A DNA stretch of 64,000 nucleotides, from NCBI GenBank assembly GCA_013374835.1, contig CP055307.1:660768-724767 (forward strand), written 5' to 3'. This stretch comes from Candidatus Woesebacteria bacterium. GTDB taxonomy: Bacteria; Patescibacteriota; Microgenomatia; UBA8517. Position 1 is the first letter of the stretch. The number at the start of each line of letters is the position of its first letter. A program made the translations under genes and the position numbers. The notes beneath the pieces were generated by a model. That model saw only the letters and a program-made list of their open reading frames with translations, was not told the origin of the DNA and did not search any database. Shown here piece by piece: positions 5,596-63,013 of this stretch.

Positions 5596-5606
5596 TTTAA
5601 ATTAAC

Positions 5607-5615
5607 TGTTATAAT
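5607..5615 (+). promoter_or_regulatory. extended -10 element TGTTATAAT upstream of ruvC
   Basis: Perfect TGnTATAAT 11 nt before the ruvC ATG; implies a very short or leaderless 5' UTR. Confidence 0.3.
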
Positions 5616-5625
5616 TTATAAAGCA

Positions 5626-6132: not shown

Positions 6133-6138
6133 TGTAAG

Positions 6139-8791: not shown

Positions 8792-9856
8792 ATGAATTTA
8801 GATCTACCCGAAAATTACGAAAAAAATAGTGAAACTTTTAATTCCATACGGATGCTTGCCGATCAAATCGAACAGGCATGGAATGAGACAGAACATTCCT
8901 CTATGCCTCAAAGCTGTACTCTGGCAAGACAAGTTATTGTTTGCGGAATGGGTGGGTCCTCTTTGGCGGGTAGATTTATTAAATATTTATTCAGACAAAG
9001 TTTACGTTCTCCGCTTGAAATATGCAGCGGATACTCTTTACCTAATTATGCGGGCCCGGGCTCGCTGGTGATTGTTTGTTCTTATTCAGGAAACACAGAG
9101 GAAACGCTATATGCTGCTTATGAAGCTCGTCAAAAAAATACCCAAATTTACGGTATTACCACCGGAGGTAAATTAAAGGAATTTTTGGAAAGATATAATT
9201 ATCCATCTTATATATTTGAGCCAAAATTTAATCCTTCGGGACAACCAAGATTTGGCATCGGATATATGATTGGTGCAACGCTTTCTATTCTTTCAAAATG
9301 TGAGTTTATATCATTTAGTGAGGAGATAATGTACGAAGCTATAAAAGTTGTAAGACGAAGCCTTAATGATTTTACTATTGATAAGGATGAGTATACGAAT
9401 CTTGCGAAGAAAACCGCTCGTGAACTTTATGGGAAAGCTATTTCAATAATTGCTAGCGAGCATTTGCTCGGCGCTTCATATATATTTAAAAACCAACTGA
9501 ACGAAACTGCTAAAACAATGTCTTATTTATACGAAATACCCGAGCTTAATCATCACTTAATGGAAGGACTTAAAAATCCCGCGCTAATTAAGGAGCATGT
9601 CAAGTTTTTTTTTGTTGAGTCCGAGTTATACAACGACCAAGTAAAAAGGCGCTATCCTATAACCAAAGAGGTTATTGATAAAAATGATATTGATTGGATC
9701 GTTTATAAACCTTTAACTGATACAAAAATTTTTCAAGCTTTTGAATTTATTTCATTTGCCTCTTTTGTTTCGGCTTATCTTTCTTTGCTTTATGGAGAAA
9801 ATCCGATTGAGATACCTTGGGTAGATTTTTTTAAATCGGCGCTTGAAAAACGATAA
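8792..9856 (+). CDS. bifunctional phosphoglucose/phosphomannose isomerase (SIS domain, archaeal-type PGI/PMI)
   Basis: Two SIS-domain signatures (VIVCGMGGSSLAG; LVIVCSYSGNTEET); 354 aa; adjacent to PMM/PGM. Confidence 0.65.
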   Translation: MNLDLPENYEKNSETFNSIRMLADQIEQAWNETEHSSMPQSCTLARQVIVCGMGGSSLAGRFIKYLFRQSLRSPLEICSGYSLPNYAGPGSLVIVCSYSGNTEETLYAAYEARQKNTQIYGITTGGKLKEFLERYNYPSYIFEPKFNPSGQPRFGIGYMIGATLSILSKCEFISFSEEIMYEAIKVVRRSLNDFTIDKDEYTNLAKKTARELYGKAISIIASEHLLGASYIFKNQLNETAKTMSYLYEIPELNHHLMEGLKNPALIKEHVKFFFVESELYNDQVKRRYPITKEVIDKNDIDWIVYKPLTDTKIFQAFEFISFASFVSAYLSLLYGENPIEIPWVDFFKSALEKR

Positions 9857-9878
9857 GCAACTTTATTATAGTTAAATA

Positions 9879-37633: not shown

Positions 37634-37721
37634 ATTAAAAAAAGATTAAGCATAAAACTGCTTCTTCAAAAATAGTTGAATTATTAAAGAAACAATTCTA
37701 GTAGGTTACCAGATTGCTGTG

Positions 37722-37794
37722 TCGGGGATGCCAGATTCGAACTGGCGACCTCACGGTCCCAAACCGTGCACTCTACCGACTGAGCTAATCCCCG
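37722..37794 (-). tRNA. tRNA-Pro (anticodon TGG)
   Basis: Reverse complement CGGGGATTAGCTCAGTCGGTAGAGTGCACGGTTTGGGACCGTGAGGTCGCCAGTTCGAATCTGGCATCCCCGA; canonical arms; CCA not encoded. Confidence 0.85.
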
Positions 37795-37834
37795 TTAAAT
37801 TAAGTGTAATTTTGTGCGAGACATATTGCCAAAT

Positions 37835-37960
37835 TCGAACTTTGTTTAAGCGGAACGGCGGCTTGCCGCCATTCAAGCCGCCGTGCTATTTCTAGCTCGG
37901 CCTGACGGCCTCGCTATTTTTTCTGCGCACAATTTAGCTGGCTTCGCCAGCCTTTGCCCG
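37835..37960. repeat. cluster of GC-rich perfect hairpins in an AT-rich background (CGGCGGCTTG.N8.CAAGCCGCCG; GCTGGC-TTC-GCCAGC; GCCCGCTTCGTGGGC) between tRNA-Pro and the end of the minus-strand operon
   Basis: Direct inspection: 10-bp perfect stem at 37848-37875, 6-bp stem at 37941-37955, T-run after 37896-37909 stem; composition contrasts with flanks. Confidence 0.35.
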
Positions 37961-38545
37961 CTTCGTGGGCACTTCTTCCTCTCCAAGTTTTGATACTATA
38001 TCACATTTGTATGCATCCTCGTCCAAAATTGGATCCCAAAGATGATCTTTATCGGGAACAATATGAATGTGGAAATGGTCCGGCCTTACTGTTCCAGAAA
38101 CAGGATCAAACCGATCGGCTCTAAACCTCCAGAAATGAACTATCTTTTTAACATCAGAGCCATCTGACCTTTTTAATTTTGCATCAAGCATTTTTCTTTT
38201 GACATGAGACAAGACATCTAAAAGTTCTGCGTTTTCCTTATATGTTTGCTCGTCAAACTCCACAAAATGGCGTTTAGAAATTACCATTGTGTGCCACCAC
38301 CAATAGGGAGCAAGGTTGGCTATCCAAACCCAATGCTGAAACTCCTTCAATACAATCTGGTATTTATCCCAATGACAAAAGGTGCAAACATCCTTAGGGA
38401 TACCAGGAATGAAGACTTTATCATATTCCTCACGATTGAGAAGTCTCGTGGGCGGAGTTTCTATTTTTTCCAGTAATTTTGGATTGTTCTTTTGCATATC
38501 TGACCATATTTTAGCACGAAGTGCCAAGCTTCGCTTATATCTCAA
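37934..38545 (-). CDS. HIT-superfamily protein (GalT/Apa2-like branch)
   Basis: CTFCHW ... HFHIHIVP (HxHxHxx histidine triad); 203 aa. Confidence 0.45.
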   Translation of the reverse strand: MRYKRSLALRAKIWSDMQKNNPKLLEKIETPPTRLLNREEYDKVFIPGIPKDVCTFCHWDKYQIVLKEFQHWVWIANLAPYWWWHTMVISKRHFVEFDEQTYKENAELLDVLSHVKRKMLDAKLKRSDGSDVKKIVHFWRFRADRFDPVSGTVRPDHFHIHIVPDKDHLWDPILDEDAYKCDIVSKLGEEEVPTKRAKAGEAS

Positions 38546-39110
38546 CCTCTACTACTTGTAAATTATCCCATTTTAGTTTTCTTAAAACATCAAAAATCAG
38601 TTGAGGATATTTGGTCCAAGGAACATCCGCAACTCTTAGAAGGAAATGCCTAAAAAAGGTGCCGTGCCCAACAATAGCAATTTTTTGATGTTTCTTGGTT
38701 TTTTTCTCCTTGAGCAAAAATTGATACAACCTTTCAACTCTATCGGCAACTGAGGCAAAGGATTCTCCTCCCGCGGGCGTCCAATTTATGTCCATTTTGT
38801 CTTTTTTGTGTTTTACTTCCCAAAAATCTGTTGCAAACTTTCTTGGCTTACCAATGATTTCTTTTGGTGTTCCGTATTCTTTTATAAAATCAAGAACTTT
38901 ATAATTTCCTTTTCCAAAAACCAAATCTGCTGTTTCCCTAGCCCTTTGTAGAGGAGAACAAAAAACCACGTCTACTTCTCCTATCTTATTCTTAGCCTGT
39001 TCAACCTTATCTAAGGTCTCGGAGTCTATAACAATTGGAGTTACATGTCGTTGCGTCAATAAATCTTCAGCGTCCCTTGTTCTTGCATGCCTGATTAGAT
39101 AAACTTTCAT
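38535..39110 (-). CDS. histidine phosphatase family protein (phosphoglycerate mutase-like fold)
   Basis: LIRHARTR N-terminal RHG motif, SPLQRARETA, C-terminal GHG; 191 aa. Confidence 0.7.
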   Translation of the reverse strand: MKVYLIRHARTRDAEDLLTQRHVTPIVIDSETLDKVEQAKNKIGEVDVVFCSPLQRARETADLVFGKGNYKVLDFIKEYGTPKEIIGKPRKFATDFWEVKHKKDKMDINWTPAGGESFASVADRVERLYQFLLKEKKTKKHQKIAIVGHGTFFRHFLLRVADVPWTKYPQLIFDVLRKLKWDNLQVVEVEI

Positions 39111-39721
39111 TAGCCGCTTTGTCCTAATCTTGGCCTTCTGCCAGCGCTACCAAGATAGCTAAAATCTCGATAAAACCTTCTTAGGCTACCTCCTTCGTCT
39201 CTTATGCCAGGTCTTACATTTCTTAGTAATTCCGCCACTTCTGGCTTTTGAGAATATTCTACAATTTCATCCCAACTAACTGGAGTACTAATTATTGGGT
39301 ATTTAGGATCCACTCCATCTACAAAAATAACAGAGACAAGCTTTCCAAGATTCCGTGCAAGAGTACATCTGTGTAGACCGTCTACTATAGCAGGCACTCC
39401 ATCACTCATTTCAACAACAGGTGGTGCAACAATATATATCGAGTTAACATAAATCTGGTCAAGCATAAAGATATCAACACTATCAGTTGACAGTATTTCA
39501 TCTCGCATTGAAGCTACAAATTGGAGATTGTTTTTCAGGACATATTTAGCAGTAGGATATAAATCATTTGGATCAAATACTCTGATTGATATCTCTGCGT
39601 TTTCATATAGAGGAAATCCACCGTCCAAGGTTCTAGTATTACGGACCGCTTCTATTAATTGTAATTTGGGCTCGATTTCTAAATCAGTTGTAGCTTCGCT
39701 CATTCTTTCTACCGCAGTCAT
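39110..39721 (-). CDS. hypothetical protein with ParB/sulfiredoxin-like DGxHR motif
   Basis: AIVDGLHRCTLARNLG; 203 aa. Confidence 0.3.
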   Translation of the reverse strand: MTAVERMSEATTDLEIEPKLQLIEAVRNTRTLDGGFPLYENAEISIRVFDPNDLYPTAKYVLKNNLQFVASMRDEILSTDSVDIFMLDQIYVNSIYIVAPPVVEMSDGVPAIVDGLHRCTLARNLGKLVSVIFVDGVDPKYPIISTPVSWDEIVEYSQKPEVAELLRNVRPGIRDEGGSLRRFYRDFSYLGSAGRRPRLGQSG

Positions 39722-40071
39722 AGAAAATATTTAGATATATCTTTCCAATTTGTAAATCTCAAAGCTCTATCATCAATGTAGATTCCTGCAATTGGTTTCA
39801 CTGCAGTTATGTCATGATAATGCACCCCTCTTTGAAAGCCATTATCAGAAAGCCATTTACTTATCTTGTTTTTTTCGAGGTTTATATCATCGTTCACTTC
39901 TGGATTTAATCGTGTAGTGAGGATAATAACTTTATAATCTTTTGATACCAGCCTTTCTAGCTCTTCTTTAGCACCTTCCATTGGGGGATCATAAATCGTC
40001 CCATCTTGCCATCCTTTACTGTATTGGTGTATAACTCCATCAAAATCTATACAAATAACTTTTTGTTTCAT
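39718..40071 (-). CDS. small HAD-superfamily phosphatase (5'(3')-deoxyribonucleotidase-like)
   Basis: VICIDFDGVIH motif I (DxDGV); 117 aa. Confidence 0.55.
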   Translation of the reverse strand: MKQKVICIDFDGVIHQYSKGWQDGTIYDPPMEGAKEELERLVSKDYKVIILTTRLNPEVNDDINLEKNKISKWLSDNGFQRGVHYHDITAVKPIAGIYIDDRALRFTNWKDISKYFL

Positions 40072-40123
40072 CTTAACTGAAGTATATCAAAAACCTGCGA
40101 AAATTGGCAATTTACGATGCTTA

Positions 40124-40594
40124 TCACTGAAGTGATCCTTCGATTTTCTCTTTCAGTTCCTCTGGAGACATGCGGACATTTTGAATCCCTGCGATAAAAC
40201 CGGCAAAGCCGTTTATCGGTTGGTGATTTACTCGCGGTATTATTTGCCAATGAAGATGTTTCACAGATGATCCAGAGTCAGGGCCGATATTGAAGCCAAT
40301 ATTGAAAGATTTAGTGTCAAAGATTTTTGAGAGAATGGTTTTTGTCTGCTCAATTTTTTCTTGCAATTCCACCCACTCATTTTTATTCAATTCTGAAGTA
40401 TCTTCGACATGACGTTTTAGCACCAACATTACATTTCCATCAAGTATCGGATATTGATTAACAAAAACCATCCAATTTTCGCCCTCAAGTGATTCGATGT
40501 TTTGCTTTTTTACTACTTCATTATTACAAAAAGGGCACTTTTTGTTATGGTAACTGTGGTTGTATTTTGATCTATATGGATTGTGGACTTTCAT
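40124..40594 (-). CDS. HIT family protein (histidine triad nucleotide hydrolase/transferase)
   Basis: VKHLHWQIIPR histidine triad; CPFC zinc motif; start taken at MKVHNPYRSKY (40594); the longer ORF-track N-terminus runs through the GC-rich repeat and is rejected. Confidence 0.6.
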   Translation of the reverse strand: MKVHNPYRSKYNHSYHNKKCPFCNNEVVKKQNIESLEGENWMVFVNQYPILDGNVMLVLKRHVEDTSELNKNEWVELQEKIEQTKTILSKIFDTKSFNIGFNIGPDSGSSVKHLHWQIIPRVNHQPINGFAGFIAGIQNVRMSPEELKEKIEGSLQ

Positions 40595-40755
40595 AACAAC
40601 AATAATGTTTAAGGATATCATAATTTGGTATACTGAAAACATATTAAAAATTTTTGCGTTTTTATTTTTCGCCTTAACAGGCGTGTTCGAGCCGACTTTT
40701 TGCGAGGCCGAAAGCCGAGCTAGGAATAAGCAGAGCTTGTCTCTGCGAGATAGCG

Positions 40756-40781
40756 CGGCGATTGGGTGGGGGCAATCGCCG
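40756..40781. repeat. perfect 9-bp GC-rich hairpin (CGGCGATTG-GGTGGGGG-CAATCGCCG), part of the extended copy-A repeat region
   Basis: Direct inspection; the CGATTGGGTG...CAATCG motif recurs around copy C. Confidence 0.4.
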
Positions 40782-40840
40782 CACCTTTGAAATACGTTCG
40801 AATTTGAATATATACAGAGCACACAAAATGATCAGATGGA

Positions 40841-40913
40841 TATGCGCGAGCCGCGAATGGCCGCGCGGCGAGCGCATTATGCGGAGGAATCGGGCAAAAT
40901 TCAATTCGTTTAC
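40841..40913 (+). repeat. GC-rich imperfect-palindrome repeat, copy A (GCGCGAGCCGCG-N4-GCCGCGCGGCGAGCGC ... ATGCGG...AATCGGG.AAAATTCAATTCGTTTA)
   Basis: ~90% identical to copy C (47905-47990) in the same orientation; inverted relative to copy B. Confidence 0.75.
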
Positions 40914-40982
40914 ATATGAGTAAGAAAAAATAAAAACACAAAAATTTAATCAAAGCCAGTTACTTTGATTGATTAAACTGCC

Positions 40983-42524
40983 ATGAAATACATAGCCTAT
41001 TGCAGAAAATCAACAGATGAGAAGGAGAAACAAATTCTCTCCATTGATCAGCAAATCTATGAGTTAAAGCAGTTTGCGCAGAGAGAAAACTTGGAGATAG
41101 TTGAATTTTTGACAGAGGCGCAAACTGCCAAAGTTCCTGGACGGAAAGTATTTTCAAACTTTATTAGCCTAGTTGAAAAAGGTGTTGCACAAGGAATTAT
41201 TGCTTGGCACCCCGACAGACTTGCCAGGAACTCGATAGGTGGTGGAAAAATTATTTATCTTCTCGATGAAGGAAAACTTCAATCTCTAAAATTTCCCACT
41301 TTCTGGTTTGAAAATACTCCCCAGGGCAGATTTATGCTTAATATCGCTTTTGGCCAAGCTAAGTATTATGTTGATAATCTAAGTGAGAATGTAAAACGAG
41401 GTTTATACCACAAATTAAGACATGGTGGCTGGCCATCGCTTGCCCCTATCGGCTACTTAAATGACAGAAACTTGCGTTCTGTCATTGTTCACCCCAAAGA
41501 GGGAAAGTTGGTAAAACTTGCTTTTCTGAAATTCTCCTCCGGCGAATTTAGCAGTATGAAAGATATTCAAACTTTCTTTTTCAAAAACAAGTTGTTTAAA
41601 GCTGGCGAAAAACCCATGCACTACAATCAAATTCGTGCAATTCTCACAAACAGCTTTTATTATGGCCTCATGCTTTACCATGGCGAAACGTATGAGGGTA
41701 GTCACAAGCCTTTAATTAGCAAAAAGACTTTTGACAAAGCTCAAGAAATTTTGGAGAAAAAGTACAGCAAGAAACCCCACAAGCACGAATTTGATTTCAC
41801 TGGTTTTATTACGTGCAAAGAATGCGGTTCGTTTGTAACTGCCGAGACACACAAAAAGTTCTATCGAAAAACGAACCGCAATGCTACCTATATTTACTAC
41901 CGCTGTGTCAAGAAAAAGGGAATTTGTTCGCAAAAGTACCTTCGTGAAGAAAAAGTTGAAAAACAGCTCAGAGAAATTGTGGAGAGTGTTTCTTTAAATG
42001 AAAAATGGCAAGCCAAAATGCTTGAACTTTTGGCGAAAGATGAGATTAAAGAAAAGGAAACAATTAAAAGTGAGCTTCGCTCACTCACAGTTTCTCTGGA
42101 AGCTGTCGAGGAAAAACTAGACAAACTACTTGAAGGCTACTTAGAAGAAATAGTTGACACCGAAGATTATCAAGCTAAGAAAAAAGATTTTCTCGACAAA
42201 AAGAAAGTTTTGAAAGAGAAAATATCAGAAGTTAAGCAAAAAGGAAGTGCTTGGCTCGAACCGATGAGAGAATTCATCAATGAGGCCGCAGAAGCGGCCA
42301 AAATCGCGCGCAAAAAAAATAATTGCGATGAACTTTCAGTCATCGCAAAAAAAGTCGGCTCGAACTTCTATATGATGAATAAACGGATTTATTTTGAGCC
42401 CTGCGCACCGCATATTGCGCTCGCCGCGCGGCCTGTCGCGGCTCGCGCATACCCCACCGCTACCATTTTGTGCCGAGGGTGGGACTCGAACCCACACGTC
42501 CGATTATCGAACACAGGATTTTAA
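40983..42524 (+). CDS. large serine recombinase (resolvase catalytic domain, recombinase domain, Zn-ribbon, coiled-coil)
   Basis: N-terminal YCRKSTDEKEKQILSIDQQ (catalytic Ser), AWHPDRLARN, recombinase domain, CKECGSFVTAETHKKFYRK...YYRCVKKKGICS zinc ribbon, long coiled-coil; the ORF as drawn reads through repeat B and into tRNA-Leu, so the true C-terminus is probably upstream of ~42400. Confidence 0.8.
   Translation: MKYIAYCRKSTDEKEKQILSIDQQIYELKQFAQRENLEIVEFLTEAQTAKVPGRKVFSNFISLVEKGVAQGIIAWHPDRLARNSIGGGKIIYLLDEGKLQSLKFPTFWFENTPQGRFMLNIAFGQAKYYVDNLSENVKRGLYHKLRHGGWPSLAPIGYLNDRNLRSVIVHPKEGKLVKLAFLKFSSGEFSSMKDIQTFFFKNKLFKAGEKPMHYNQIRAILTNSFYYGLMLYHGETYEGSHKPLISKKTFDKAQEILEKKYSKKPHKHEFDFTGFITCKECGSFVTAETHKKFYRKTNRNATYIYYRCVKKKGICSQKYLREEKVEKQLREIVESVSLNEKWQAKMLELLAKDEIKEKETIKSELRSLTVSLEAVEEKLDKLLEGYLEEIVDTEDYQAKKKDFLDKKKVLKEKISEVKQKGSAWLEPMREFINEAAEAAKIARKKNNCDELSVIAKKVGSNFYMMNKRIYFEPCAPHIALAARPVAARAYPTATILCRGWDSNPHVRLSNTGF
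42385..42470 (-). repeat. GC-rich imperfect-palindrome repeat, copy B (inverted), directly abutting the 3' end of tRNA-Leu(TAA)
   Basis: Reverse complement of 42406-42450 matches copy C core with 2 mismatches over 45 nt. Confidence 0.75.
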
Positions 42525-42556
42525 GTCCTGAGCGTCTACCATTCCGCCACCTCGGC
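42471..42556 (-). tRNA. tRNA-Leu (anticodon TAA), long variable arm
   Basis: Reverse complement GCCGAGGTGGCGGAATGGTAGACGCTCAGGACTTAAAATCCTGTGTTCGATAATCGGACGTGTGGGTTCGAGTCCCACCCTCGGCA; class II cloverleaf. Confidence 0.85.
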
Positions 42557-42626
42557 TTTAATTATATAAGTGAGAGTAGGCTAATTTTACTATATTGTGC
42601 TAAAATTTGGAAACTAAGTCACAATT

Positions 42627-43541
42627 ATGTCCGAAAGATCGAAAAAACTACCAATGGGATGCCTACCCTTTTTTATACCTCCACTTCTTCTTTTGGGTAC
42701 ATCGGGCTGTAAAAATTTTGAAATAATTGACGTTTCATCCCCAAAAACCGAAAATCAAGGCGATAATGAATTGAATTTTCGGCTTGATCCGAAAATCTTA
42801 GATTTTGAAGAAAAAATTGCACAATCTCTTGCTATTAAAATTGAAACTTCAGAAGCTAAGCCGCCGGATGTTTTATACCAAGTAACACCTCTTAATAATA
42901 CTCCCGGGTGGTATGTTTGCACATTTAATATGCTTCGCGAAAACGATGACGGGCCTCAAAGAGTAGGGCTTCAGGTTGGAAAGATTGTATTATATGCCGA
43001 TAGAGATGTAATTGATTTTGTGGGACAATTTGTTGATTTACCCGATACAGGACACACAGGAGACAGCGAGTCTATACGTTTTTTTACAAAAGTAGGTGAG
43101 GACGGAAAAATAAGAATTTATCTTATTCAAATTTGGCAACACAATAATGGTTTTTGGACTAATTATTCACCAGACGAATTTGAATTAGATGATGGTGCTT
43201 TGGTTTTTTATGAAAGCGAGGGGAAGCATACGCTCTATTCAAGCCGTGAAGAATGCAATAGTGAGCATATAATCCGCCTTGCCGATGGGGTGTCTATCAC
43301 TCGCGATTACTGCCACGAGGCTTCCTCACGGATAAGTATCGACATAAACGGGCTTAATAATGTCGGAGAAAGAAATACTCCCCTAAACCCGTTTAAGACT
43401 AATCCGGAGCTTTCTGAAAGGTATCCTGATGAGTCGCCCTTTGGAATTAACGGACAAGATGGAAAGTTTTGCGGCGGAGCAGAAAATAATGGTAGATGCA
43501 AAGCGAGCATTAAGCTCTGGCCGCCTGACGGCGAACACTAG
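42627..43541 (+). CDS. hypothetical lipoprotein
   Basis: Lipobox LLGTSGC after a hydrophobic signal; 304 aa; C-terminus overlaps pyrG convergently by ~30 nt. Confidence 0.4.
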   Translation: MSERSKKLPMGCLPFFIPPLLLLGTSGCKNFEIIDVSSPKTENQGDNELNFRLDPKILDFEEKIAQSLAIKIETSEAKPPDVLYQVTPLNNTPGWYVCTFNMLRENDDGPQRVGLQVGKIVLYADRDVIDFVGQFVDLPDTGHTGDSESIRFFTKVGEDGKIRIYLIQIWQHNNGFWTNYSPDEFELDDGALVFYESEGKHTLYSSREECNSEHIIRLADGVSITRDYCHEASSRISIDINGLNNVGERNTPLNPFKTNPELSERYPDESPFGINGQDGKFCGGAENNGRCKASIKLWPPDGEH

Positions 43542-45222
43542 CTTTTATAAATTCAATAAATATCGGATGAGGAGATAGAGGCCTTGATAAATACTCGGGG
43601 TGGAATTGAGTTCCGATAAAAAACGGATGATTTTTGATCTCGATTGCTTCTACTAATTTATTATCAGGAGAGATTCCAGAAATCGTTAACCCTTCTTTTT
43701 CAAAGAGTTTTTTATATTTCATGTTAAATTCATATCTGTGTCTGTGTCGCTCATGGATTAATGGCTGATGATTAATGGCTAATGGCTGATTTTTCTGTAA
43801 CGGATTGGGGTGGTGCCAGGGGGAGGAAGCATCTGAATGCATATTATAAATATTTTTAAGCTTGGTGTCTTTAATCAAAACACAAGGCCATGCTCCGAGC
43901 CTAATTGTACCGCCGAACTGGTTTTTTTCAAGATATTTCTTTTGATCCGGCATAAGGTGTATTACGGGATGGGGTGTTTTAGGATCGATTTCAACCGAAT
44001 TTGCGCCTTTTAAGTTCAGAATGTTCCTTGCGTATTCTATCACCGCCATTTGCATCCCAAAGCATAGTCCTAAAAATGGAACGGCATTTTCTCTTGCGAA
44101 TTTAACCGCTTTGATTTTCCCTTCTGATCCACGGCTGCCCCAGCCTTGCGGAACGATTAACGAATCTGCCTGGGAAAGATATTTTTTAATTTCATCAGAG
44201 GACTTTTTTTCCAAACTTTCAGCGTTTATCCAGATTACCTCCGGCTTGACACCAACGCTTGTAGACGCATGCTTTATGGCTTCATTAACGCAAACATAGC
44301 TATCCTCAAGAACATAGTCGCCTGTATTTTGGTATTTTCCAACTATAGCTATTTTTATTTTACTTTTTGATTTTTCGGATTTTTTAATATAATCATTCCA
44401 GCTTTTAAGATCTTTTGACTTAAATTTAAGATCTAAACTATTTGCTATCATCGCACTTAGGTTTTGTTTTTCTAAATAAGGGGGAAGCTTATAAACACAA
44501 TCCAGATCGGGATTGGCAATAATGTGCTTTACTGGAACACCTGATGCAAGAAAAATTTTTTCTTTTCGCTTACTGTCTATTGCTTTTTCAGATCTTGCTA
44601 CTATGAAATCCGGCTGTATCCCTAGTGAGTTTAGAAGAGAAATTGATTGCTGTAGAGGCTTTGACTTCAGCTCCCCAATTGAAGGCGGAGTGGGGAGATA
44701 ACCTACTAAAATAAAGATGATGTCTTTTGGCTTTTTGAGTTTGATTCTTCTAGCCGCTTCGAAGAAAAGCAGTCCTTCATATTCCCCTACAGTGCCACCT
44801 AATTCAACTATTACCACCTCTGCTCGGTTTTTTCTTCCTGCTTCTTCCCATCTTTTGATGATTTCCGGGGGTATATGGTGGTAAGGTTCGACGCATTTTC
44901 CCTGATAATAAAGTGCTCTTTCTTTTTCAAGAACATCTTTGTATATTTGACCGTTAGTCATATAATTTGACCTGTTTAAATTTTTCCCCAGAAACCGTTC
45001 GTAGTGACCCAGATCCTGGTCTGTTTCAATGCCATCGTGCGTAACAAAGACTTCTCCATGCTCTATAGGGTTCATGGTGCCTGCGTCAATATTCAGATAC
45101 ATATCGCATTTAACCAGAGTTGTTTTGATACCTTTTGAAGAGAGCAGAAGACCGATTGAAGCACTTGTTATGCCTTTTCCTAGACCGGACAATACACCTC
45201 CTGCGACTATAATATATTTCAT
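43510..45222 (-). CDS. pyrG: CTP synthase
   Basis: N-terminal KYIIVAGGVLSGLGKGITSAS; glutamine amidotransferase GLCFGMQ and HPE motifs; 570 aa; contains a short in-frame decamer repeat (PLAINHQPLIHE). Confidence 0.9.
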   Translation of the reverse strand: MKYIIVAGGVLSGLGKGITSASIGLLLSSKGIKTTLVKCDMYLNIDAGTMNPIEHGEVFVTHDGIETDQDLGHYERFLGKNLNRSNYMTNGQIYKDVLEKERALYYQGKCVEPYHHIPPEIIKRWEEAGRKNRAEVVIVELGGTVGEYEGLLFFEAARRIKLKKPKDIIFILVGYLPTPPSIGELKSKPLQQSISLLNSLGIQPDFIVARSEKAIDSKRKEKIFLASGVPVKHIIANPDLDCVYKLPPYLEKQNLSAMIANSLDLKFKSKDLKSWNDYIKKSEKSKSKIKIAIVGKYQNTGDYVLEDSYVCVNEAIKHASTSVGVKPEVIWINAESLEKKSSDEIKKYLSQADSLIVPQGWGSRGSEGKIKAVKFARENAVPFLGLCFGMQMAVIEYARNILNLKGANSVEIDPKTPHPVIHLMPDQKKYLEKNQFGGTIRLGAWPCVLIKDTKLKNIYNMHSDASSPWHHPNPLQKNQPLAINHQPLIHERHRHRYEFNMKYKKLFEKEGLTISGISPDNKLVEAIEIKNHPFFIGTQFHPEYLSRPLSPHPIFIEFIKASVRRQAARA

Positions 45223-45265
45223 TAAGTTTAGCCCAGATCAGATTAACAAAAGAGGAGTATTGTTG

Positions 45266-45808
45266 TCAAAAGTTTTTTGATCTTTTGAATAAAAGCATAA
45301 AAAGACTGATCATTACAAAAGCCGTTGCTGCCATTAGAGGTATTGTAATGTAACCAAAATTCATTACGAATTTTTCTGCACATGAGATCGAAAAGCCGAC
45401 TGCTGAGCATGAAATATTCGGTACTAAACCTAATTGAAGCAAATAATGGTATATTGACAGCGGCGCACCAAGGAGCGAAAGAGTAAGAATATAATCCGTG
45501 ATTATCTTTTCGTTTTTCCAGAGGGCGACGGCAAGCAAAGGCACTTGGGGATACATCAGAATTCTTTGATACCAGCAGAGAATGCACGGCGTAAAACCTG
45601 CAATCTCGGAATAATACAGGCTCCCTGATGTTGCCATAAGAGCAACGATAAAGGAAAAGATATATGAATTTTTTGAAAAAAAGCTAAAGATAAAAGATCT
45701 TTTTTTAAACGGTAAAAAGATAAGAAGAAGCAAAAAAATAATAGTTAGTTGGCCTAAAATCGTAAGATAAGATAAAAATCGGCTTATGTGTGCAGGATCC
45801 ATATTCAA
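45266..45808 (-). CDS. disulfide bond formation protein B-like (DsbB/BdbC family)
   Basis: Two periplasmic Cys pairs (PCILCW; CSAVGFSISC) in a 4-TM protein of 180 aa. Confidence 0.5.
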   Translation of the reverse strand: MNMDPAHISRFLSYLTILGQLTIIFLLLLIFLPFKKRSFIFSFFSKNSYIFSFIVALMATSGSLYYSEIAGFTPCILCWYQRILMYPQVPLLAVALWKNEKIITDYILTLSLLGAPLSIYHYLLQLGLVPNISCSAVGFSISCAEKFVMNFGYITIPLMAATAFVMISLFMLLFKRSKNF

Positions 45809-46449
45809 TTGAGTTCTTTGTCGATTAGAATTCTAAAACCTTCTATATCTTTTGGATTCGGTACTATCCTACCATTTAGGGCAAAGGTTGGTGTTCCTCT
45901 GACACCTATTTCGAGGGAATTTTTTCTACTTTCTTCTACTTTCTCTATTAGTTGAGAATCTTCGTAGTCAGATAAAAACTTGTCTTTATCAATACCGATT
46001 TCTTCTGCGTATTGGGCAAAGAGATTTTTTGGGTCGCTTTCTGATGCCCATTCAGTTTGTTTTTCAAATAAAATGTCGTACATTTCCCAGAATTTATCCT
46101 GCCTCCCTGCGGCTTCTGCCGAAACAGCCGCGTTGAATGCATTTTTGTGTATATTTGTCAGCGGAAAGTGTCTTACTACAAACAAAATCCTATCTTGATA
46201 CTCGTCAAGAACAGACTTTACTATTGGATAGTATGATCTGCACGCTGGACATTGGAAATCAAGATATTCTATAAGAACTACACTTGAATCTCTTTTTCCT
46301 ATTGTCCAATCCTCCTCATATGTACCAAGAGAATTATCCGACAAATTTTCATTGCCGGTAGCAGGGCGTGAAAGCTTAAAAAGTGCAAACCCTAAAACAA
46401 AGATTGCAAGCAAAACGAATATTTTAACCAAAATATTGCTATTTTTCAT
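45805..46449 (-). CDS. DsbA/BdbD-like thiol-disulfide oxidoreductase, membrane-anchored
   Basis: Thioredoxin-fold CPAC active site (DFQCPACRSY); N-terminal TM; 214 aa; translationally coupled to the DsbB-like gene. Confidence 0.6.
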   Translation of the reverse strand: MKNSNILVKIFVLLAIFVLGFALFKLSRPATGNENLSDNSLGTYEEDWTIGKRDSSVVLIEYLDFQCPACRSYYPIVKSVLDEYQDRILFVVRHFPLTNIHKNAFNAAVSAEAAGRQDKFWEMYDILFEKQTEWASESDPKNLFAQYAEEIGIDKDKFLSDYEDSQLIEKVEESRKNSLEIGVRGTPTFALNGRIVPNPKDIEGFRILIDKELN

Positions 46450-46481
46450 TTTTTCCTCTTTTTTGATTATTTATATCTCAG

Positions 46482-46553
46482 TGCCCCCGGAGGGATTCGA
46501 ACCCCCACCCCATGGTCCGAAGCCACGTATTCTATCCGTTAAACTACGGAGGC
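46482..46553 (-). tRNA. tRNA-Arg (anticodon TCG inferred)
   Basis: Reverse complement GCCTCCGTAGTTTAACGGATAGAATACGTGGCTTCGGACCATGGGGTGGGGGTTCGAATCCCTCCGGGGGCA; anticodon loop CTTCGGA; the anticodon assignment depends on the loop register. Confidence 0.7.
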
Positions 46554-46602
46554 TTTAATTGTAATAATAAATAGTATAACAGATTTGTTGTAAAATAGGC
46601 TC

Positions 46603-47688
46603 ATGGCAAATCTACAAAAAGAGGATATTACCAAAATGCAAATCAAGCGTATCGAAAACGAAATTCGCGATACGCCAAAGCATAAAGCTACAGAGCATTA
46701 TGTAGGACGGCTTAGAGCAAAATTAGCAAAACTCAAAGAAAGAATAGAAGAGCAGGAATCTAAAAAGACAGGCGGAGGCGGCGGATATGCAATTCGAAAA
46801 CAAGGGGATGCAACCGTGATTTTAATCGGTCCGCCATCCACTGGCAAATCTACCCTTTTAAATAGATTGACAAATGCCCATTCAAAAGTTGCACCTTATT
46901 TATTTACAACGGTAAGCGTAATTCCGGGGATGATGCAATACAAAAATACAGATATACAAATACTTGATGTTCCGGGACTAATTGAAGGTGCAGATATAGG
47001 AAAGGGGAGAAGCAGGGAAGTGTTATCTGTTGTAAGAGGAGCGGATTTAATTATTATCATGTCTGACATTGATAGGGTTCAAGCGATTAAACATATTGCC
47101 AAAACACTTGAATCTAGTGGCATAAGGATCAATAAGAAAAAGCCGGAGGTAAAGATTGAGAAAAAAAATTCAGGCGGATTAATAATCCATTCAAATATTA
47201 AACAAGGAGTTGACAAAGAAACTATCAAAGAAATTGCCCGTGAAATGGGGATTAAAAATGCTGAGATAACGATTAAAGAGAGTCTTGATGTTGAAGAGCT
47301 GATTGATGCTTTTTCAAAAAACAGAGTCTATGTGCCGGCAATATTTGTAATTAATAAGATTGATGTCGGCAATTTTCAAAATCACGAAAAATTTATTTTG
47401 ATTAGCGCTGAAAAGGGTAGTGGAATTAAAAAGCTTAAAAAAGCGATATGGAGAAAGCTTGGGTTTGTAAGAGTTTATCTGGTGAATCCCGATGCCGAGC
47501 CTGATTTCAGCAACCCTATTGTTGTTAAGAGCGGATATTCATTAGCGGACGTTGCCAAAAAAATTGGGGGCGAATTTTTTGAAAATAAAAAAGGGGCAAA
47601 GATATGGGGAAATGGAGCTAAATTTCCCGGGCAGGAGGTTTCGCTTGGAAAAGAAGTTGTTGAGGGGATGATGATAAGGTTTTTTTGA
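46603..47688 (+). CDS. DRG-family (archaeal/eukaryotic-type Obg-like) GTP-binding protein with C-terminal TGS domain
   Basis: N-terminus QIKRIENEIRDTPKHKATEHYVGRLRAKLAKLKE matches the DRG N-terminal helix; G1 GPPSTGKST; G3 DVPGLIEGA; C-terminal TGS-like VRVYLVNPD; 361 aa. Confidence 0.7.
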   Translation: MANLQKEDITKMQIKRIENEIRDTPKHKATEHYVGRLRAKLAKLKERIEEQESKKTGGGGGYAIRKQGDATVILIGPPSTGKSTLLNRLTNAHSKVAPYLFTTVSVIPGMMQYKNTDIQILDVPGLIEGADIGKGRSREVLSVVRGADLIIIMSDIDRVQAIKHIAKTLESSGIRINKKKPEVKIEKKNSGGLIIHSNIKQGVDKETIKEIAREMGIKNAEITIKESLDVEELIDAFSKNRVYVPAIFVINKIDVGNFQNHEKFILISAEKGSGIKKLKKAIWRKLGFVRVYLVNPDAEPDFSNPIVVKSGYSLADVAKKIGGEFFENKKGAKIWGNGAKFPGQEVSLGKEVVEGMMIRFF

Positions 47689-47701
47689 TATAATATCATA
47701 T

Positions 47702-47787
47702 GCCCTCATGGCGGAATTGGCAGACGCGCAGCGTTCAGGACGCTGTTCCCGTTAATGGGAGTAGAGGTTCAACTCCTCTTGAGGGCA
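47702..47787 (+). tRNA. tRNA-Leu (anticodon CAG)
   Basis: GCCCTCATGGCGGAATTGGCAGACGCGCAGCGTTCAGGACGCTG...GGTTCAACTCCTCTTGAGGGCA, class II. Confidence 0.85.
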
Positions 47788-47815
47788 CTGATTTGATAAA
47801 ATATAATTAGTTTGA

Positions 47816-47897
47816 GCCGAGGTGTTGGAACTGGTAGACAAGCACGCTTGAGGTGCGTGTGGGGAAACCCGTGCAGGTTCAAGTCCTGTCCTCGGCA
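47816..47897 (+). tRNA. tRNA-Leu (anticodon GAG)
   Basis: GCCGAGGTGTTGGAACTGGTAGACAAGCACGCTTGAGGTGCGTG...GGTTCAAGTCCTGTCCTCGGCA, class II. Confidence 0.85.
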
Positions 47898-47904
47898 CAG
47901 AAAA

Positions 47905-47990
47905 GGAGCGATTGGGTGTGCGCGAGCCGCGACAGGCCGCGCGGCGAGCGCATCATGCGGTGCAATCGGGAAAAATTCAATTCGTTTATT
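47905..47990 (+). repeat. GC-rich imperfect-palindrome repeat, copy C, directly 3' of tRNA-Leu(GAG)
   Basis: GCGATTGGGTGTGCGCGAGCCGCGACAGGCCGCGCGGCGAGCGCATCATGCGGTGCAATCGGGAAAAATTCAATTCGTTTATT; matches copies A and B. Confidence 0.75.
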
Positions 47991-48094
47991 TTCCAATAAG
48001 TAGTTCGAGCTGGCCCTTATCCCAAGCCAGATTTGTTATTCAATAAAAGTTTTGATTCGGTTGTTTCGGATGTTTGTGATAAAATAGATGATAC

Positions 48095-48267: not shown

Positions 48268-48404
48268 AGAATGGCTTCTTAGCAAAAAGAACTCAAAAAA
48301 GTAAGTTTCAATAAAAAAAATTTGCTATAATTATTAAGTACTTGCGGGTATAGTTGAAAGGTCCAACGACTCCCTTCCAAGGAGTAAATCGGGGTTCGAT
48401 TCCC
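48268..48404 (+). repeat. 137-bp direct repeat, left copy: tRNA-Gly(TCC) upstream region with TGCTATAAT extended -10, plus tRNA 5' portion through the T-loop
   Basis: ~135/137 identical to 51848-51984 (offset exactly 3580 bp). Confidence 0.85.
48344..48404 (+). pseudogene. truncated tRNA-Gly(TCC): 5' end to T-loop only, 3' T-stem and acceptor strand replaced
   Basis: Identical to the intact tRNA-Gly at 51924-51984, then diverges (TCACTGGGTACCATGG) and cannot close the acceptor stem. Confidence 0.75.
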
Positions 48405-48420
48405 TCACTGGGTACCATGG

Positions 48421-48490
48421 CCCGTGCTCAGTGGCTAGAGTGCTTCGTTTATATCGAAGAAGTCGTAGGTTCAAATTTTATCACCTTCAC
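48421..48490 (+). pseudogene. tRNA-like fragment: canonical acceptor 5' strand, D-arm and anticodon arm (loop TTTATAT, anticodon TAT), but no pairing 3' acceptor strand
   Basis: GGCCCGTGCTCAGTGGCTAGAGTGCTTCGTTTATATCGAAG...; the 3' part does not pair with the 5' acceptor strand. Confidence 0.4.
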
Positions 48491-58667: not shown

Positions 58668-58979
58668 TTTGGGAAATCGCGAAATCGTTGGATGCGGTGC
58701 CCCGACCCGCCGCGTTTCCGAAAAAGTCGGCTTGAACATTCCGCTGAAAGCGTAACAAAGAAAAACGCAAAAATTTTAAAGAACTTTTATTAAATTCAAA
58801 TGGCCACCCCGGTCGTACTCAAACCCTTTCAGATCTGCCCAAGGTGGCCATTAAAAAATCCGAAAGATAATTAGAGTACAGTTTTAATATACAAATTTTT
58901 CAAAGAAAAAAACAATAATTACTCTTCTCAAAAACTTTTGAAAAAAATATAATACACTTAAAATTATTGAAAAACATAT

Positions 58980-62680: not shown

Positions 62681-62941
62681 AAAAAATAAGAGCTACAACT
62701 AGACACTCCCTATGGAGATCTTACTGCGAAACTGATAAAATATCTAGAAATATTCGCTCGTGAGAGCAGTACAGAAATTGAGGATTGGGAGTTTCAGTGT
62801 CCACGCACGGGCGGGTGGGGCAAGGACATTATAAAATCCTTTCCTTGCTCGAGCGAAGCAGAGAAAAAATGCGTTCGAATTTTTCCAAAAACGTGCACCG
62901 TGTTTAATGTGGTGATAGGTGCGTTCAACTTACCACCACAT

Positions 62942-63013
62942 GGGCCCATAGCTTAATAGTAGAACAACACCCTCTTAATGTGATGGTCGGAGGTTCGAAT
63001 CCTCCCGGGCTCA
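62942..63013 (+). pseudogene. tRNA-Lys-like degenerate copy: divergent 5' half (weak D and anticodon stems, acceptor mismatch) but 3' half identical to tRNA-Lys; right boundary of islet
   Basis: GGGCCCATAGCTTAATAGTAGAACAACACCCTCTTAATGTG + ATGGTCGGAGGTTCGAATCCTCCCGGGCTCAC; the 32-nt stretch 62983-63014 is identical to 58634-58665. Confidence 0.6.

Follow-up and report, generated by a model that had tools for sequence, protein, structure and literature searches.

Tn4451 and Tn5397 are transposon-like elements moved by large serine recombinases (TnpX and TndX) via a circular intermediate. At each of their junctions a half-site of the element is paired with one of the target, which is why the ends resemble inverted repeats. 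In the yeast 2-micron plasmid (Flp/FRT) and in chloroplast-type inverted repeats, two long near-identical repeats divide two unique arcs, and both orientations occur. Hin/Gin/Cin segments and shufflons have inverted repeats around a segment able to carry the recombinase gene, and inversion exchanges an ORF 3′ end. Phage-type large serine integrases (A118/LI Int, phiC31, Bxb1, and SPbeta SprA) combine resolvase catalytic, recombinase, and zinc ribbon plus coiled coil domains. The published positions of the zinc-ribbon motif for A118-type integrases are 11-19 in attB and 16-24 in attP (PMC3783163). Tycheposons are integrase-bearing cargo elements at tRNA 3′ ends, a minority of which use a large serine recombinase, with partial-tRNA repeats, element arrays, and degraded remnants near tRNAs (Hackl et al., bioRxiv 10.1101/2020.12.28.424599).

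The window (the whole stretch of 64,000 nucleotides analysed, from a Candidatus Woesebacteria bacterium) probably contains a ~4.66 kb integrated mobile element driven by a large serine recombinase (LSR), which spans 37813-42469 exactly at the 3′ end of tRNA-Leu(taa) and has putative attP, attL, and attR sites. A sequence-only reading of this DNA had proposed an LSR element tied to tRNA 3′ ends, and the same architecture indeed recurs in related loci (L numbers below). The family to which it belongs is very common among Patescibacteria (CPR) genomes, and a literature search found no description of this family.

The element shares its domains and a putative attP/attB/attL/attR logic with the phage-type integrases. 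Unlike them, it targets the 3′ ends of many different tRNA genes, uses a pseudo-tRNA as its apparent P arm with the motif on just one arm per site, retains a second, inverted, intact attP-like copy, and has a site that overlaps the 3′ end of the recombinase ORF. No phage genes and no directionality factor were identified in the elements examined. It resembles tycheposons in setting and remnants but differs in that its partial tRNA does not copy the target but is a diverged mimic that contains a 5-bp insertion, its recombinase is always of the serine type, its hosts are Patescibacteria, and its size is only 3-5 kb with a 2 x 200-nt inverted duplication. Like the 2-micron plasmid, it has one arc encoding the recombinase and repeats kept identical within an element, although the recombinase is not of the tyrosine type and the element is integrated at a tRNA gene. 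Hin/Gin/Cin segments and shufflons instead rely either on small serine invertases, together with an enhancer and Fis, or on the tyrosine recombinase Rci; they act on 26-bp hix or 19-bp sfx sites and are not mobile among tRNA genes. Tn4451 and Tn5397, which span 6-20 kb, are resistance or conjugative elements whose targets are GA dinucleotides; they lack tRNA targeting, a pseudo-tRNA, and a duplicated attP.

Repeats and Recombinase Gene

The features of the element and of the neighboring tRNA-Leu(gag) are as follows.

37813..37914, minus strand: distal pseudo-tRNA block PSI_d and hairpin H_d, putative attR (P arm joined to host trailer; motif map and sequences), with a GCACA end (37813-37817), T-loop-like 9-mer (37832-37840), GC hairpin (37855-37884), and H_d (37895-37914)
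37915..37931, minus strand: L′, a recombinase-derived stretch beside H_d that resembles codons ...KIARRKNN (sequence comparison)
37934..40603, minus strand: cargo arc of five ORFs, HIT, His_Phos_1, ParB-CE, HAD_SAK_2 (weak), and HIT/DcpS-like (ORF list, Pfam)
40648..40701, plus strand: left block of a 22-mer (40648-40669), small hairpin (40670-40683), and rc(R′) GTTCGAGCCGACTTTTT (40685-40701), found by repeat search and kept in all related loci
40702..40821, plus strand: hairpin H_p and proximal pseudo-tRNA block PSI_p, putative P arm of an intact attP-like site, with a GC hairpin (40755-40782), T-loop-like 9-mer GTTCGAATT (40796-40804), and GCA (40819-40821)
40822..40912, plus strand: copy A (TIR_A), comprising spacer, 12-8-12 GC hairpin core (40842-40877), and tail; putative P′ arm and beyond
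40983..42524, plus strand: large serine recombinase ORF, 513 aa (Pfam Resolvase, Recombinase, Zn_ribbon_recom)
42324-42347: hairpin H_rec, terminator-like on the tRNA-sense strand, opposite to the recombinase (terminator scan)
42380..42469, minus strand: copy B (TIR_B) joined to the tRNA, core 42415-42450, putative attL (sequence comparison)
42470..42556, minus strand: tRNA-Leu(taa), the docking target, whose T-arm and acceptor end form the putative B arm
47816-47898, plus strand: tRNA-Leu(gag), abutted by copy C
47899..48030, plus strand: copy C, a solo TIR (47899-47988, core 47918-47953) with a downstream remnant

The core GCGCGAGCCGCG-NNN-GGCCGCGCGGCGAGCGC matches exactly three times in the window, at 40844-40875 (+), 42417-42448 (-), and 47920-47951 (+), and has no match in 100 dinucleotide-preserving shuffles, so that no copy would be expected by chance. 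All three copies lie where the sequence-only reading placed them, but the unit is longer than it proposed: it is ~91 nt, starts just past the tRNA discriminator, and ends in CGTTTA. Local GC reaches 51-68%, compared with 37% in the window as a whole, in line with the claim of GC-rich repeats in GC-poor surroundings. Compared segment by segment, the cores of B and C are identical (32/32) and A departs at two loop bases; the tails match at 33/37 (A-C), 28/39 (A-B), and 25/37 (B-C), and the spacers at ~15-17/23 for every pair. Past the tail, the next 32 nt of B and C are alike (22/33); the B version of these 32 nt codes for recombinase. The tail of A duplicates the last recombinase codons. The left-block 22-mer has an inverted partner at 40926-40947, and rc(R′) exactly matches, in reverse complement, the recombinase codons AKKVGSN (42349-42365).

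Copies A and B are drifted here (84% over 65 nt). In relatives, the recombinase-flanking repeats are 93-100% identical; in 11/14 distinct module-table rows they are 87-147 nt long and 94-100% identical, and they vary from one element to another. A and B are not built as reciprocal chimeras from C-like half-sites; relatives simply have identical copies.

As the sequence-only reading had it, A and B are inverted around the recombinase gene, and the frame runs across B into the tRNA. PDB relatives of the recombinase are SPbeta SprA/YokA (9dxh) and the A118 integrase (4kis). Homolog C-termini indicate that its conserved part stops near codon 475 (NKRIYFEP). Since the final codons of the gene overlap copy B, the ORF then continues through this copy and into tRNA-Leu(taa) on its antisense strand. 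Among ~98 complete homolog C-termini, 71 enter the antisense T-arm of a tRNA and 11 enter PSI (...RTYF). More than 6,423 homologs were found at E<=1e-10, named Parcubacteria, Woesebacteria, Gottesmanbacteria, and similar.

Split Sites and Proposed Integration

Module order is alike in every related locus fetched, and the pseudo-tRNA block beside A accompanies the recombinase in every genome compared; it is not host DNA. Neither ARAGORN nor Rfam calls a tRNA in PSI_p. Six independent relatives (L004, L038, L053, L059, L060, and L061) have a split-site pattern. The left ~100 nt of the A-site (56 nt in L053) are repeated inverted, 0.6-3.3 kb off and at 96-100% identity, in a distal copy that adjoins host DNA, while the right ~100 nt are repeated inverted at the recombinase 3′ end, beside the tRNA. 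The two half repeats meet at the (pseudo)tRNA 3′ end, with an overlap of just 5-9 nt at GCACA in 4/6 and 16-23 nt in L004 and L059.

Because the ~200-nt PSI+A is split elsewhere into two repeats, PSI+A appears to be an attP-like site, B an attL, and the second PSI an attR. The earlier assignment of A and B as attL and attR would survive for B, an attL-type junction; PSI_p with copy A instead resembles an intact, inverted attP-type site.

A complete element carries a ~200-nt module twice, in inverted orientation. Each copy consists of hairpin H, PSI, spacer, GC hairpin, and tail, and the pair divides the recombinase arc from the cargo arc. PSI and spacer would form the attP-type site, and integration would cut one module copy at the PSI/spacer junction. 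The crossover probably falls at the 3′ end of the tRNA rather than within the GC palindrome, and its partner would be the last bases of the tRNA gene, putatively C72-A73. The products would be attL, in which the tRNA is joined to spacer, GC hairpin, and tail (copy B), and attR at 37.8 kb, in which PSI_d is joined to the host trailer. The second module copy (PSI_p and copy A) would be left intact directly upstream of the recombinase.

In most lineages, the 9-mer GTTCRAnTY is 21 nt away from the junction in tRNAs and 26 nt away in PSI. With C72-A73 as the center, it occupies positions 11-19 (tRNA) and 16-24 (PSI); here G53-C61 of tRNA-Leu(taa) falls at positions 19-11, and the PSI_p 9-mer at 24-16 counting from G40819. 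A motif position 5 bp farther from the center in the P arm than in the B arm is likewise described for A118-family sites (PMC3783163). The 5-bp offset is not universal (4 bp in L053, larger in L060), which counts against the model. No inverted copy of the 9-mer is present in the P′ arm (spacer) or the B′ arms (tRNA trailers), an asymmetry that would be unusual in an LSR site.

All four site types are seen, namely attB (empty sites), attP-like (A-sites), attL (B-sites), and attR (PSI_d joined to host DNA). It counts against the model that no excised circle or PSI_d-TIR_B junction was seen among the loci examined. The model does not account for the GC hairpin, for hairpin H and its recombinase-derived flanks, or for how the module copies are kept identical. 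The GC hairpin core may block transcription between the tRNA and the recombinase gene that converges on it, or may serve as a secondary site.

Distal End and Cargo

PSI_d and tRNA-Leu(taa) are in direct orientation, and 18 nt separate PSI_d from tRNA-Pro(tgg) (37721-37794). H_d with the L′ T-run is terminator-like on the plus strand. Distal and proximal PSI are 96-100% identical in L004, L038, L059, L060, and L061; in this window they are ~70% alike by eye, and blastn does not detect the similarity. Because the window copies have drifted, the attR call rests on motifs, orientation, and comparisons with L027, L010, and L050. In L027, an orthologous island without the recombinase lies between the same two tRNAs and is closed by the orthologous PSI_d block. 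Two observations count against the model: the closest syntenic relative, L002, has a tRNA-Leu(tag)-TIR-recombinase relic in place of PSI_d at its left boundary, and the PSI_d-to-tRNA-Pro spacer has no demonstrable homology to the L010 or L050 spacers. The cargo arc is syntenic in L002, and other elements carry different cargo. An attR-type junction at 37813-37914 would make this a ~4.66 kb element with five cargo genes, not the recombinase-only element first proposed.

Empty Sites, Target tRNAs, and Copy C

Copies B and C abut tRNA-Leu 3′ ends, as claimed, but the element is not specific to tRNA-Leu. Its targets are Leu (taa, gag, tag, cag, caa), Glu, Met, Trp, and Lys tRNAs, the last represented by a relic. 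Recombinase-free sites exist, and the single repeat predicted there is absent: in L010 and L050, tRNA-Pro comes directly after tRNA-Leu(taa), at 27 and 71 nt respectively, and the tRNA-Leu(gag)-Val spacer of syntenic L002 lacks copy C. Complete elements occupy tRNA-Leu(gag) in L007 and L010.

Copy C had been taken for an unoccupied attB. It comprises a full element end plus decayed recombinase codons (SSNYLLENKRIEF...), a 3′ remnant that runs to ~48014 and is followed by a hairpin and T-rich tail (48010-48040). A tRNA-TIR junction followed by a partial recombinase 3′ end also occurs in L006 and in the third copy in L002. Judged by its sequence, copy C is not an empty attB but a decayed scar, of putative attL type, left by an older element at tRNA-Leu(gag) once its recombinase gene had been deleted.

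Orientation of the Recombinase Arc

Both orientations of the recombinase arc exist. In L065 the order is recombinase, TIR, PSI_p(rc), left block(rc), cargo, and L′-H-PSI_d, then host DNA. L001 and L007 are 99.3% identical up to the junction, where one enters PSI and the other tRNA-Leu(gag), and tRNA-TIR junctions with an A-type flank occur in L024 and L027. The arc could flip between A and B, after which the ORF would read into PSI; either the recombinase or homologous recombination may drive this.

Such flipping is also expected of a pure inversion switch, in which the recombinase uses A and B as its own crossover sites, crossover falls in the GC palindrome loop, and the cassette flips in place without being mobile, swapping the recombinase C-terminal tail and the tRNA trailer. 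This explanation is unlikely, although A and B form an inverted and usually identical pair, the arms of the 12-8-12 palindrome co-vary across lineages, many contigs end at these repeats, and a deletion at tRNA-Lys that joined hairpin H to a TIR core suggests breaks within hairpin loops. It leaves unexplained the distal PSI copies without spacer or core, the sharp meeting of two repeats at the tRNA end, the repeat-free empty sites, the occupation of ~nine different tRNAs, and the solo relics. A fixed central crossover would also not hold the flanks identical.

Other Readings of the Repeat

The repeat could instead be a native tRNA 3′-trailer RNA or terminator family, transcribed with the tRNA, with the recombinase merely adjacent or targeting it. 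The unit begins exactly at the mature tRNA 3′ end, its internal mismatches on the tRNA-sense strand are tandem G-A, H_rec with a T-run follows ~150 nt downstream and is terminator-like on that strand, and relics retain exactly the tRNA, the repeat, and an H_rec-type hairpin. This is improbable, since the repeat is missing from orthologous tRNA trailers of relatives, is found after the pseudo-tRNA upstream of the recombinase as well, invariably accompanies a recombinase gene or remnant, has no Rfam match for repeat or element, and folds no better than GC-matched shuffles (z = -0.1 to -1.5). The repeat of a docked element may still be transcribed as a tRNA trailer.

A minimal recombinase-only element, with A and B as attL and attR and C as an unoccupied paralogous attB, would explain why A and B enclose just the recombinase gene and why B and C abut tRNA-Leu genes. 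It is very improbable given the recombinase-derived codons past the repeat in C, the real empty sites without a repeat, and an A flank that is the conserved pseudo-tRNA block, with its left half having its own distal partner.

A generic dispersed repeat (REP/MITE) unrelated to the recombinase, which a multi-copy GC-rich imperfect palindrome might suggest, is refuted at present sampling and has a negligible probability, as just three copies occur in 64 kb, all at (pseudo)tRNA ends, and the exact core is found in only 5 of ~185,000 species genomes, at 1-2 copies/contig and always adjoining a recombinase gene or its 3′ remnant. Metagenome matches outside low-GC CPR contigs were rejected as chance in DNA of 65-75% GC.

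Relic at tRNA-Lys

The window also holds one further relic.

58668..58879, minus strand: relic at the 3′ end of tRNA-Lys(ctt), derived from a second, different element (covariance-model match of 55 bits; compared with L061 element 1)

It contains an 87-nt pseudoknot RNA (58795-58879), the 22-mer, a small hairpin, and the K′ motif. At 58668-58693, a type-2 TIR spacer in reverse complement is joined to the left half of H.

The repeats and the recombinase

The three GC-rich repeats, copies A, B and C, are confirmed. The core GCGCGAGCCGCG-NNN-GGCCGCGCGGCGAGCGC occurs three times in the window, at 40844-40875 (+), 42417-42448 (-) and 47920-47951 (+), and not once in 100 shuffles. The sequence-only reading had located all three correctly and put their size at about 70-90 bp; the unit is in fact longer: it starts with the base that follows the tRNA discriminator and extends to CGTTTA, about 91 nt in all. 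Copies A and B are very probably the ends of a conserved recombinase cassette, with copy C a relic. The features concerned are as follows.

Features of the window
37813-37914, minus strand: PSI_d, the distal copy of a conserved pseudo-tRNA block (PSI)
37934-40603, minus strand: five cargo ORFs (HIT, His_Phos_1, ParB-CE, weak HAD_SAK_2, HIT/DcpS-like)
40822-40912, plus strand: copy A
40983-42524, plus strand: large serine recombinase (LSR) gene, 513-aa ORF with Resolvase, Recombinase and Zn_ribbon_recom domains
42380-42469, minus strand: copy B
42470-42556, minus strand: tRNA-Leu(taa), called by ARAGORN and Rfam
47816-47898, plus strand: tRNA-Leu(gag), called by ARAGORN and Rfam
47899-47988, plus strand: copy C
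58668-58879, minus strand: relic of a second element (87-nt RNA, T-rich box, small hairpin, half of hairpin H)

The PF00239 resolvase catalytic domain of the recombinase spans residues 4-149 (Pfam, E=9.5e-20) and has its nucleophilic serine, Ser10, within AYCRKSTDE. A PF07508 recombinase domain (residues 171-259) and a PF13408 zinc ribbon (residues 272-328) are also present, and residues 197-417 align with the A118 integrase C-terminal domain (4kis/6dnw). The nearest solved structures are SPbeta SprA/YokA (9dxh) and A118 integrase. Repeats of about 95 nt and a 513-aa protein with LSR domains are unlike a small serine invertase of the Hin/Gin type, which has about 190 aa, 26-bp sites and an enhancer.

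As the sequence-only reading had observed, the recombinase ORF runs through copy B into the antisense strand of the tRNA. The peptide NKRI(E/Y)F.P.APH.ALAARP.AARA.P, common to copies A, B and C when translated antisense to the tRNA, is the C-terminal tail of a very large recombinase family, with more than 6,423 matches at E<=1e-10 whose source names are all Patescibacteria groups. Among about 98 homologs with complete tails, 71 continue into the antisense of a tRNA T-arm (...CRGxDSNPH), 11 end in '...LYxKIRTYF' and 16 in other sequence. The RTYF-type tail is the minus-strand reading of copy A, and its RTYF peptide is the antisense reading of the T-loop-like motif GTTCGAAT in the conserved block upstream of A; the tail is therefore conserved at the DNA level, not the protein level.

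A prophage origin is rejected, since no locus fetched carries phage genes and the family is nearly absent from viral contigs, where its only two matches are truncated fragments of non-CPR origin (CPR, Patescibacteria).

The long homologs of about 865-890 aa, such as P0041, are fusions in which a disrupted recombinase reads through into the next recombinase. Different family members also form arrays and nested copies, as in the related loci L059 (recombinases at 5001-6650 and 9119-10675), L066 (2821-5454 and 8217 onward) and L061 (536-2092 and 3944-5491). One junction in L059 links the 3' repeat of element 1 to a second copy of the pseudo-tRNA block of element 2. Several low-GC contigs with a Patescibacteria-type element (L005, L006, L008, L009) bear the public record title 'uncultured Gammaproteobacteria bacterium', probably in error.

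A conserved module at tRNA genes

The recombinase and its repeats belong to a module whose order is identical in every related locus fetched.

Order of the module
Part 1, upstream: T-rich box of about 22 nt, small hairpin, and a 17-nt reverse complement of the recombinase codons AKKVGSN
Part 2: hairpin H
Part 3: PSI, with a long GC hairpin, the motif GTTCGAAT and the end ...GCACA
Part 4: copy A, recombinase gene, copy B, then the tRNA

The docked tRNAs vary and include Leu(taa, gag, tag, cag), Glu(ctc), Met(cat) and Trp(cca), with element relics at tRNA-Leu(caa) and tRNA-Lys(ctt). The integrase gene lies at the tRNA-proximal end, and the unit begins at the base after the discriminator. The module table has 14 distinct rows; in 11 of them the recombinase is flanked by copies of 87-147 nt with 94-100% identity, alike within an element and differing between elements. 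The window is an outlier among the loci: A and B are 93% identical over 44 nt in the module table, or 84% over 65 nt in the repeat comparison.

This distribution bears on what the repeats are. A generic dispersed repeat of the REP/MITE kind is rejected, as collection scans gave no large number of copies at unrelated intergenic sites; about half of the metagenome matches to the repeat are chance matches in high-GC DNA. The alternative of a structured-RNA family found no support either. Across the window and six related loci, only tRNAs reach gathering scores in Rfam 15, a permissive Rfam search over the L052 module gave chance-level matches only, and the folds of A, B and C, each taken as a single sequence, do not improve on those of shuffles.

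Split sites and proposed integration

Each locus was searched for further copies of the ~200-nt region that precedes its recombinase. In six loci (L004, L038, L053, L059, L060 and L061), its left 100 nt or so (H and PSI) recurs inverted 0.6-3.3 kb leftward at 96-100% identity, the recurring part being only 56 nt in L053. Its right 100 nt or so recurs inverted at the recombinase 3' end in the same six loci. The two repeats overlap by 5-9 nt in four of the six, at GCACA, which is the (pseudo)tRNA 3' end, and by 16-23 nt in L004 and L059. The distal PSI copies adjoin unrelated DNA and have neither spacer nor GC core.

Such a pattern is expected if one of two inverted PSI|spacer sites has been cut by integration into a tRNA. 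The free element would carry the PSI|spacer site twice, in inverted orientation, and integration into the tRNA 3' end would cut one copy. The products would be attL, in which the tRNA is joined to spacer, core and tail (copy B), and attR, in which PSI_d is joined to the host. The proximal block, PSI_p, together with copy A upstream of the recombinase, would remain an intact site. Every junction has GCA/CA where the (pseudo)tRNA ends, which is compatible with an identical 2-bp crossover. None of the loci fetched is a circle-junction contig. On this evidence, the model of an integrated element is favored, with some reserve. The sequence-only reading had named the right class of element, an integrase element; its att-site assignments and its view of copy C were wrong.

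In another model, attP lay within the GC hairpin near the 3' end of the recombinase gene and the protein truly ended in '...IRTYF'. This model was dropped because IRTYF is the antisense of GTTCGAAT in the pseudo-tRNA and because the distal PSI copies lack spacer and core.

The proposed element in the window

PSI_d is in direct orientation with tRNA-Leu(taa) and lies 18 nt from tRNA-Pro(tgg). If it is the far end, as the integration model would have it, the element spans 37813-42469. A pseudo-tRNA block in direct orientation ends the island in both the window and L027, and it is an element-borne mimic, not a copy of the target tRNA. The L027 island lies between the same two tRNAs, begins with a tRNA|repeat junction, is ended by the PSI block about 105 nt before tRNA-Pro, and has lost its recombinase.

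Empty sites were sought in relatives and found. Downstream of tRNA-Leu(taa), tRNA-Pro comes after 27 nt in L010 and after 71 nt in L050, with no repeat in between; both genomes carry the same element family at other tRNAs. The relatives with empty sites (L010, L050 and, at tRNA-Leu(gag), L002) are distant, with recombinases 66-71% identical.

The five cargo ORFs, two HIT proteins, a histidine phosphatase, ParB-CE and the weak HAD_SAK_2 match (RNA-repair 'Swiss army knife'), look like a set for nucleotide or RNA-end processing. The cargo arc is syntenic in L002. The cargo ORF beside PSI_d was tested as a recombinase fragment and is not one.

Copy C keeps the full repeat, and beyond it 22/33 positions agree with the recombinase codons that come next, in frame (SSNYLLENKRIEF). 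It had been proposed as an unoccupied attB; true empty sites carry no repeat, and C holds both a repeat and recombinase-derived codons. Copy C is instead an insertion scar, because the tRNA-Leu(gag)-to-Val spacer of the syntenic L002 is without repeat, complete recombinases sit at tRNA-Leu(gag) in L007 and L010, and the codons are retained. Nor are A and B reciprocal chimeras of C half-sites: C has the loop of B, the tail type of A and the post-tail sequence of B, a mixture that fits the scar of a second element better than a recombination partner. Longer scars of this kind exist in L006 and in L002, where the scar is a third copy.

The relic at 58668-58879 is what remains of another element, now without a recombinase. 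Its 87-nt RNA, T-rich box, small hairpin and half of H run into a repeat of a different type, in reverse complement, which abuts the 3' end of tRNA-Lys(ctt).

Two orientations of the recombinase arc

The segment that the inverted repeats enclose is found in either orientation. L065 runs from recombinase to repeat, PSI_p (reverse complement), left block (reverse complement), cargo, and then L'-H-PSI_d joined to the host (L' is a short recombinase-derived stretch), which is the state predicted for an inverted arc. L001 and L007 share 99.3% identity as far as the junction, after which L001 has PSI and L007 has tRNA-Leu(gag). Junctions of tRNA and repeat with an A-type flank occur in L024 and L027, many contigs end at these repeats, and the 11 RTYF-type ORFs among the ~98 homologs enter PSI. 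The flip could be the work of the recombinase itself or of homologous recombination between the ~95-nt repeats. It is fairly probable that the element is an LSR-driven, tRNA-targeting integrative element with an unusual duplicated attP that bears a pseudo-tRNA, and with a flipping recombinase arc.

Proposed half-site geometry

The T-loop 9-mer GTTCRAnTC occupies different positions in tRNAs and in PSI. In real tRNAs, its first base, G53, is 21 nt from the discriminator. In PSI, it is 26 nt from the equivalent A in both window copies and in L001, L002, L004, L027, L038, L043, L052, L059, L061 and L065; the offset between PSI and tRNA is 4 bp in L053 and larger in L060. With C72-A73, the putative crossover dinucleotide, as the centre, GTTCRAnTY falls at 11-19 in the tRNA arm versus 16-24 in PSI. 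In A118-type serine integrases, the zinc-ribbon motif is placed exactly so in attB versus attP half-sites (Rutherford et al. 2013, PMC3783163). The match to the published motif positions holds for one arm. The other arms, the P' spacer and the B' tRNA trailers, contain no matching 9-mer, and no inverted copy was seen by eye in the P' arm; these motif-less arms are a weakness of the integration model.

Hairpins and an associated RNA

The GC hairpin of the repeats, the feature that had prompted the sequence-only reading, lies at +21 to +57 from the inferred crossover. Its arms of 10-13 bp vary between lineages yet remain complementary, and its loop of about 8 nt is usually G-rich on the tRNA-sense strand. 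A similar GC hairpin lies on the opposite side, within PSI. In L052, the hairpins at 4836-4869 and 6435-6466 have similar arms and 8-nt loops that are approximately reverse complements relative to their flanks (CCCCTGCC versus GGGGCGGG), so the asymmetric loop is flipped in one of the two.

H_rec, the equivalent of hairpin H within the recombinase coding region (42324-42347, minus strand, with a T-run to ~42313), is terminator-like on the tRNA-sense strand and lies about 150 nt downstream of tRNA-Leu(taa). Its equivalent is kept in the relics in L006 and L002 and in copy C; at copy C, a terminator scan called no terminator. The hairpin suggests that a transcription unit for a tRNA trailer lies antisense within the recombinase gene. 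As H_rec is terminator-like and retained in relics, a docked element may, speculatively, provide the tRNA with both a trailer and a terminator that are new to it, and may protect the convergent recombinase gene.

Directly upstream of the element's left block is a candidate RNA of about 87 nt with two nested stems, a 14-bp pseudoknot and its own -10-like box. Its covariation is strong, with 91% of cells paired and 19 of 29 pairs changed on both sides, a value that none of 500 shuffles reaches. A conserved U-G pair fixes its strand. Rfam has no match to it.

Occurrences of the ~87-nt RNA
Window 58795-58879, minus strand: sole survivor in the window, next to the deleted element at tRNA-Lys
L001 2631-2715
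L006 319-410
L038 3750-3840
L043 453-543
L044 527-611
L052 4540-4630
L053 4590-4674
L059 4553-4637 and 8979-9068
L060 3626-3711
L061 57-147 and 3490-3575
L066 2407-2496

Comparison and significance

The nearest described systems are tycheposons, tRNA-targeting islands of which a few use large serine recombinases, and classical serine integrases. A full-text literature search returned nothing relevant on serine recombinases in CPR, Patescibacteria or Parcubacteria. A broader proposal is tentative: in a CPR-wide LSR class, the universally conserved T-arm and acceptor end of nearly any tRNA gene would serve as the attB B arm, and a pseudo-tRNA carried by the element would supply the P arm. With a spare inverted attP kept in the element, the arc would flip, and an intact chromosomal attP would recombine with other tRNA genes, driving tRNA-cluster rearrangements and cargo capture. 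The 87-nt pseudoknot RNA and the GC-palindrome 'clamps' would be parts of the machinery.

Knowledge of mobile elements in the CPR is sparse. The recombinase genes bear no annotation beyond 'recombinase family protein', and their annotated C-termini are often spurious, extending into tRNA genes. If the integration model is right, probably no other integrative element of the Candidate Phyla Radiation is as common, and the element would explain synteny breaks and scars at CPR tRNA clusters. It would also be a natural serine integrase with a tRNA T-arm as an attB arm; since the T-arm motif is conserved in all domains of life, such an enzyme bears on efforts to find integrases that have native landing sites. 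Its duplicated inverted attP, pseudo-tRNA arm and associated structured RNA would make an unusual design, and the att-site assignments are concrete enough for direct in vitro testing.

Other remnants at tRNA genes

In L041 (9186-9560), a solo tRNA-Leu(tag)|repeat ends right after CGTTTATTCT; the sequence that follows, read by eye only, is a transposase (rve-type) gene, and such a joining would be another route to scars of this type. In L002, the spacers after Leu(cag) and Leu(gag) (1990-2082 and 1823-1906) hold direct partial duplications of tRNA 3' ends, e.g. GAGTCTCCCCGAGTGCAC, which on their sequence resemble the classical scar of a different tRNA-integrating element.

A pseudo-tRNA-like block at and around 62873-62881 (+) in the window (CGTTCGAATTTTTCCAAAAACGTGCACC), of the type of L061 element 1, lies about 60 nt upstream of a tRNA at 62942-63013 that Rfam calls and ARAGORN misses. 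Weak Rfam tRNA matches (33.5 and 31.3 bits, one partial) follow tRNA-Phe at 48344-48413 and 48426-48481 (+). In the syntenic locus of L002, Gly, Arg and Lys tRNAs follow directly, and in the window Arg(tct) and Lys(ctt) are 10 kb away at 58.5 kb, which points to decayed tRNAs and to a large insertion or rearrangement within the window's tRNA cluster.
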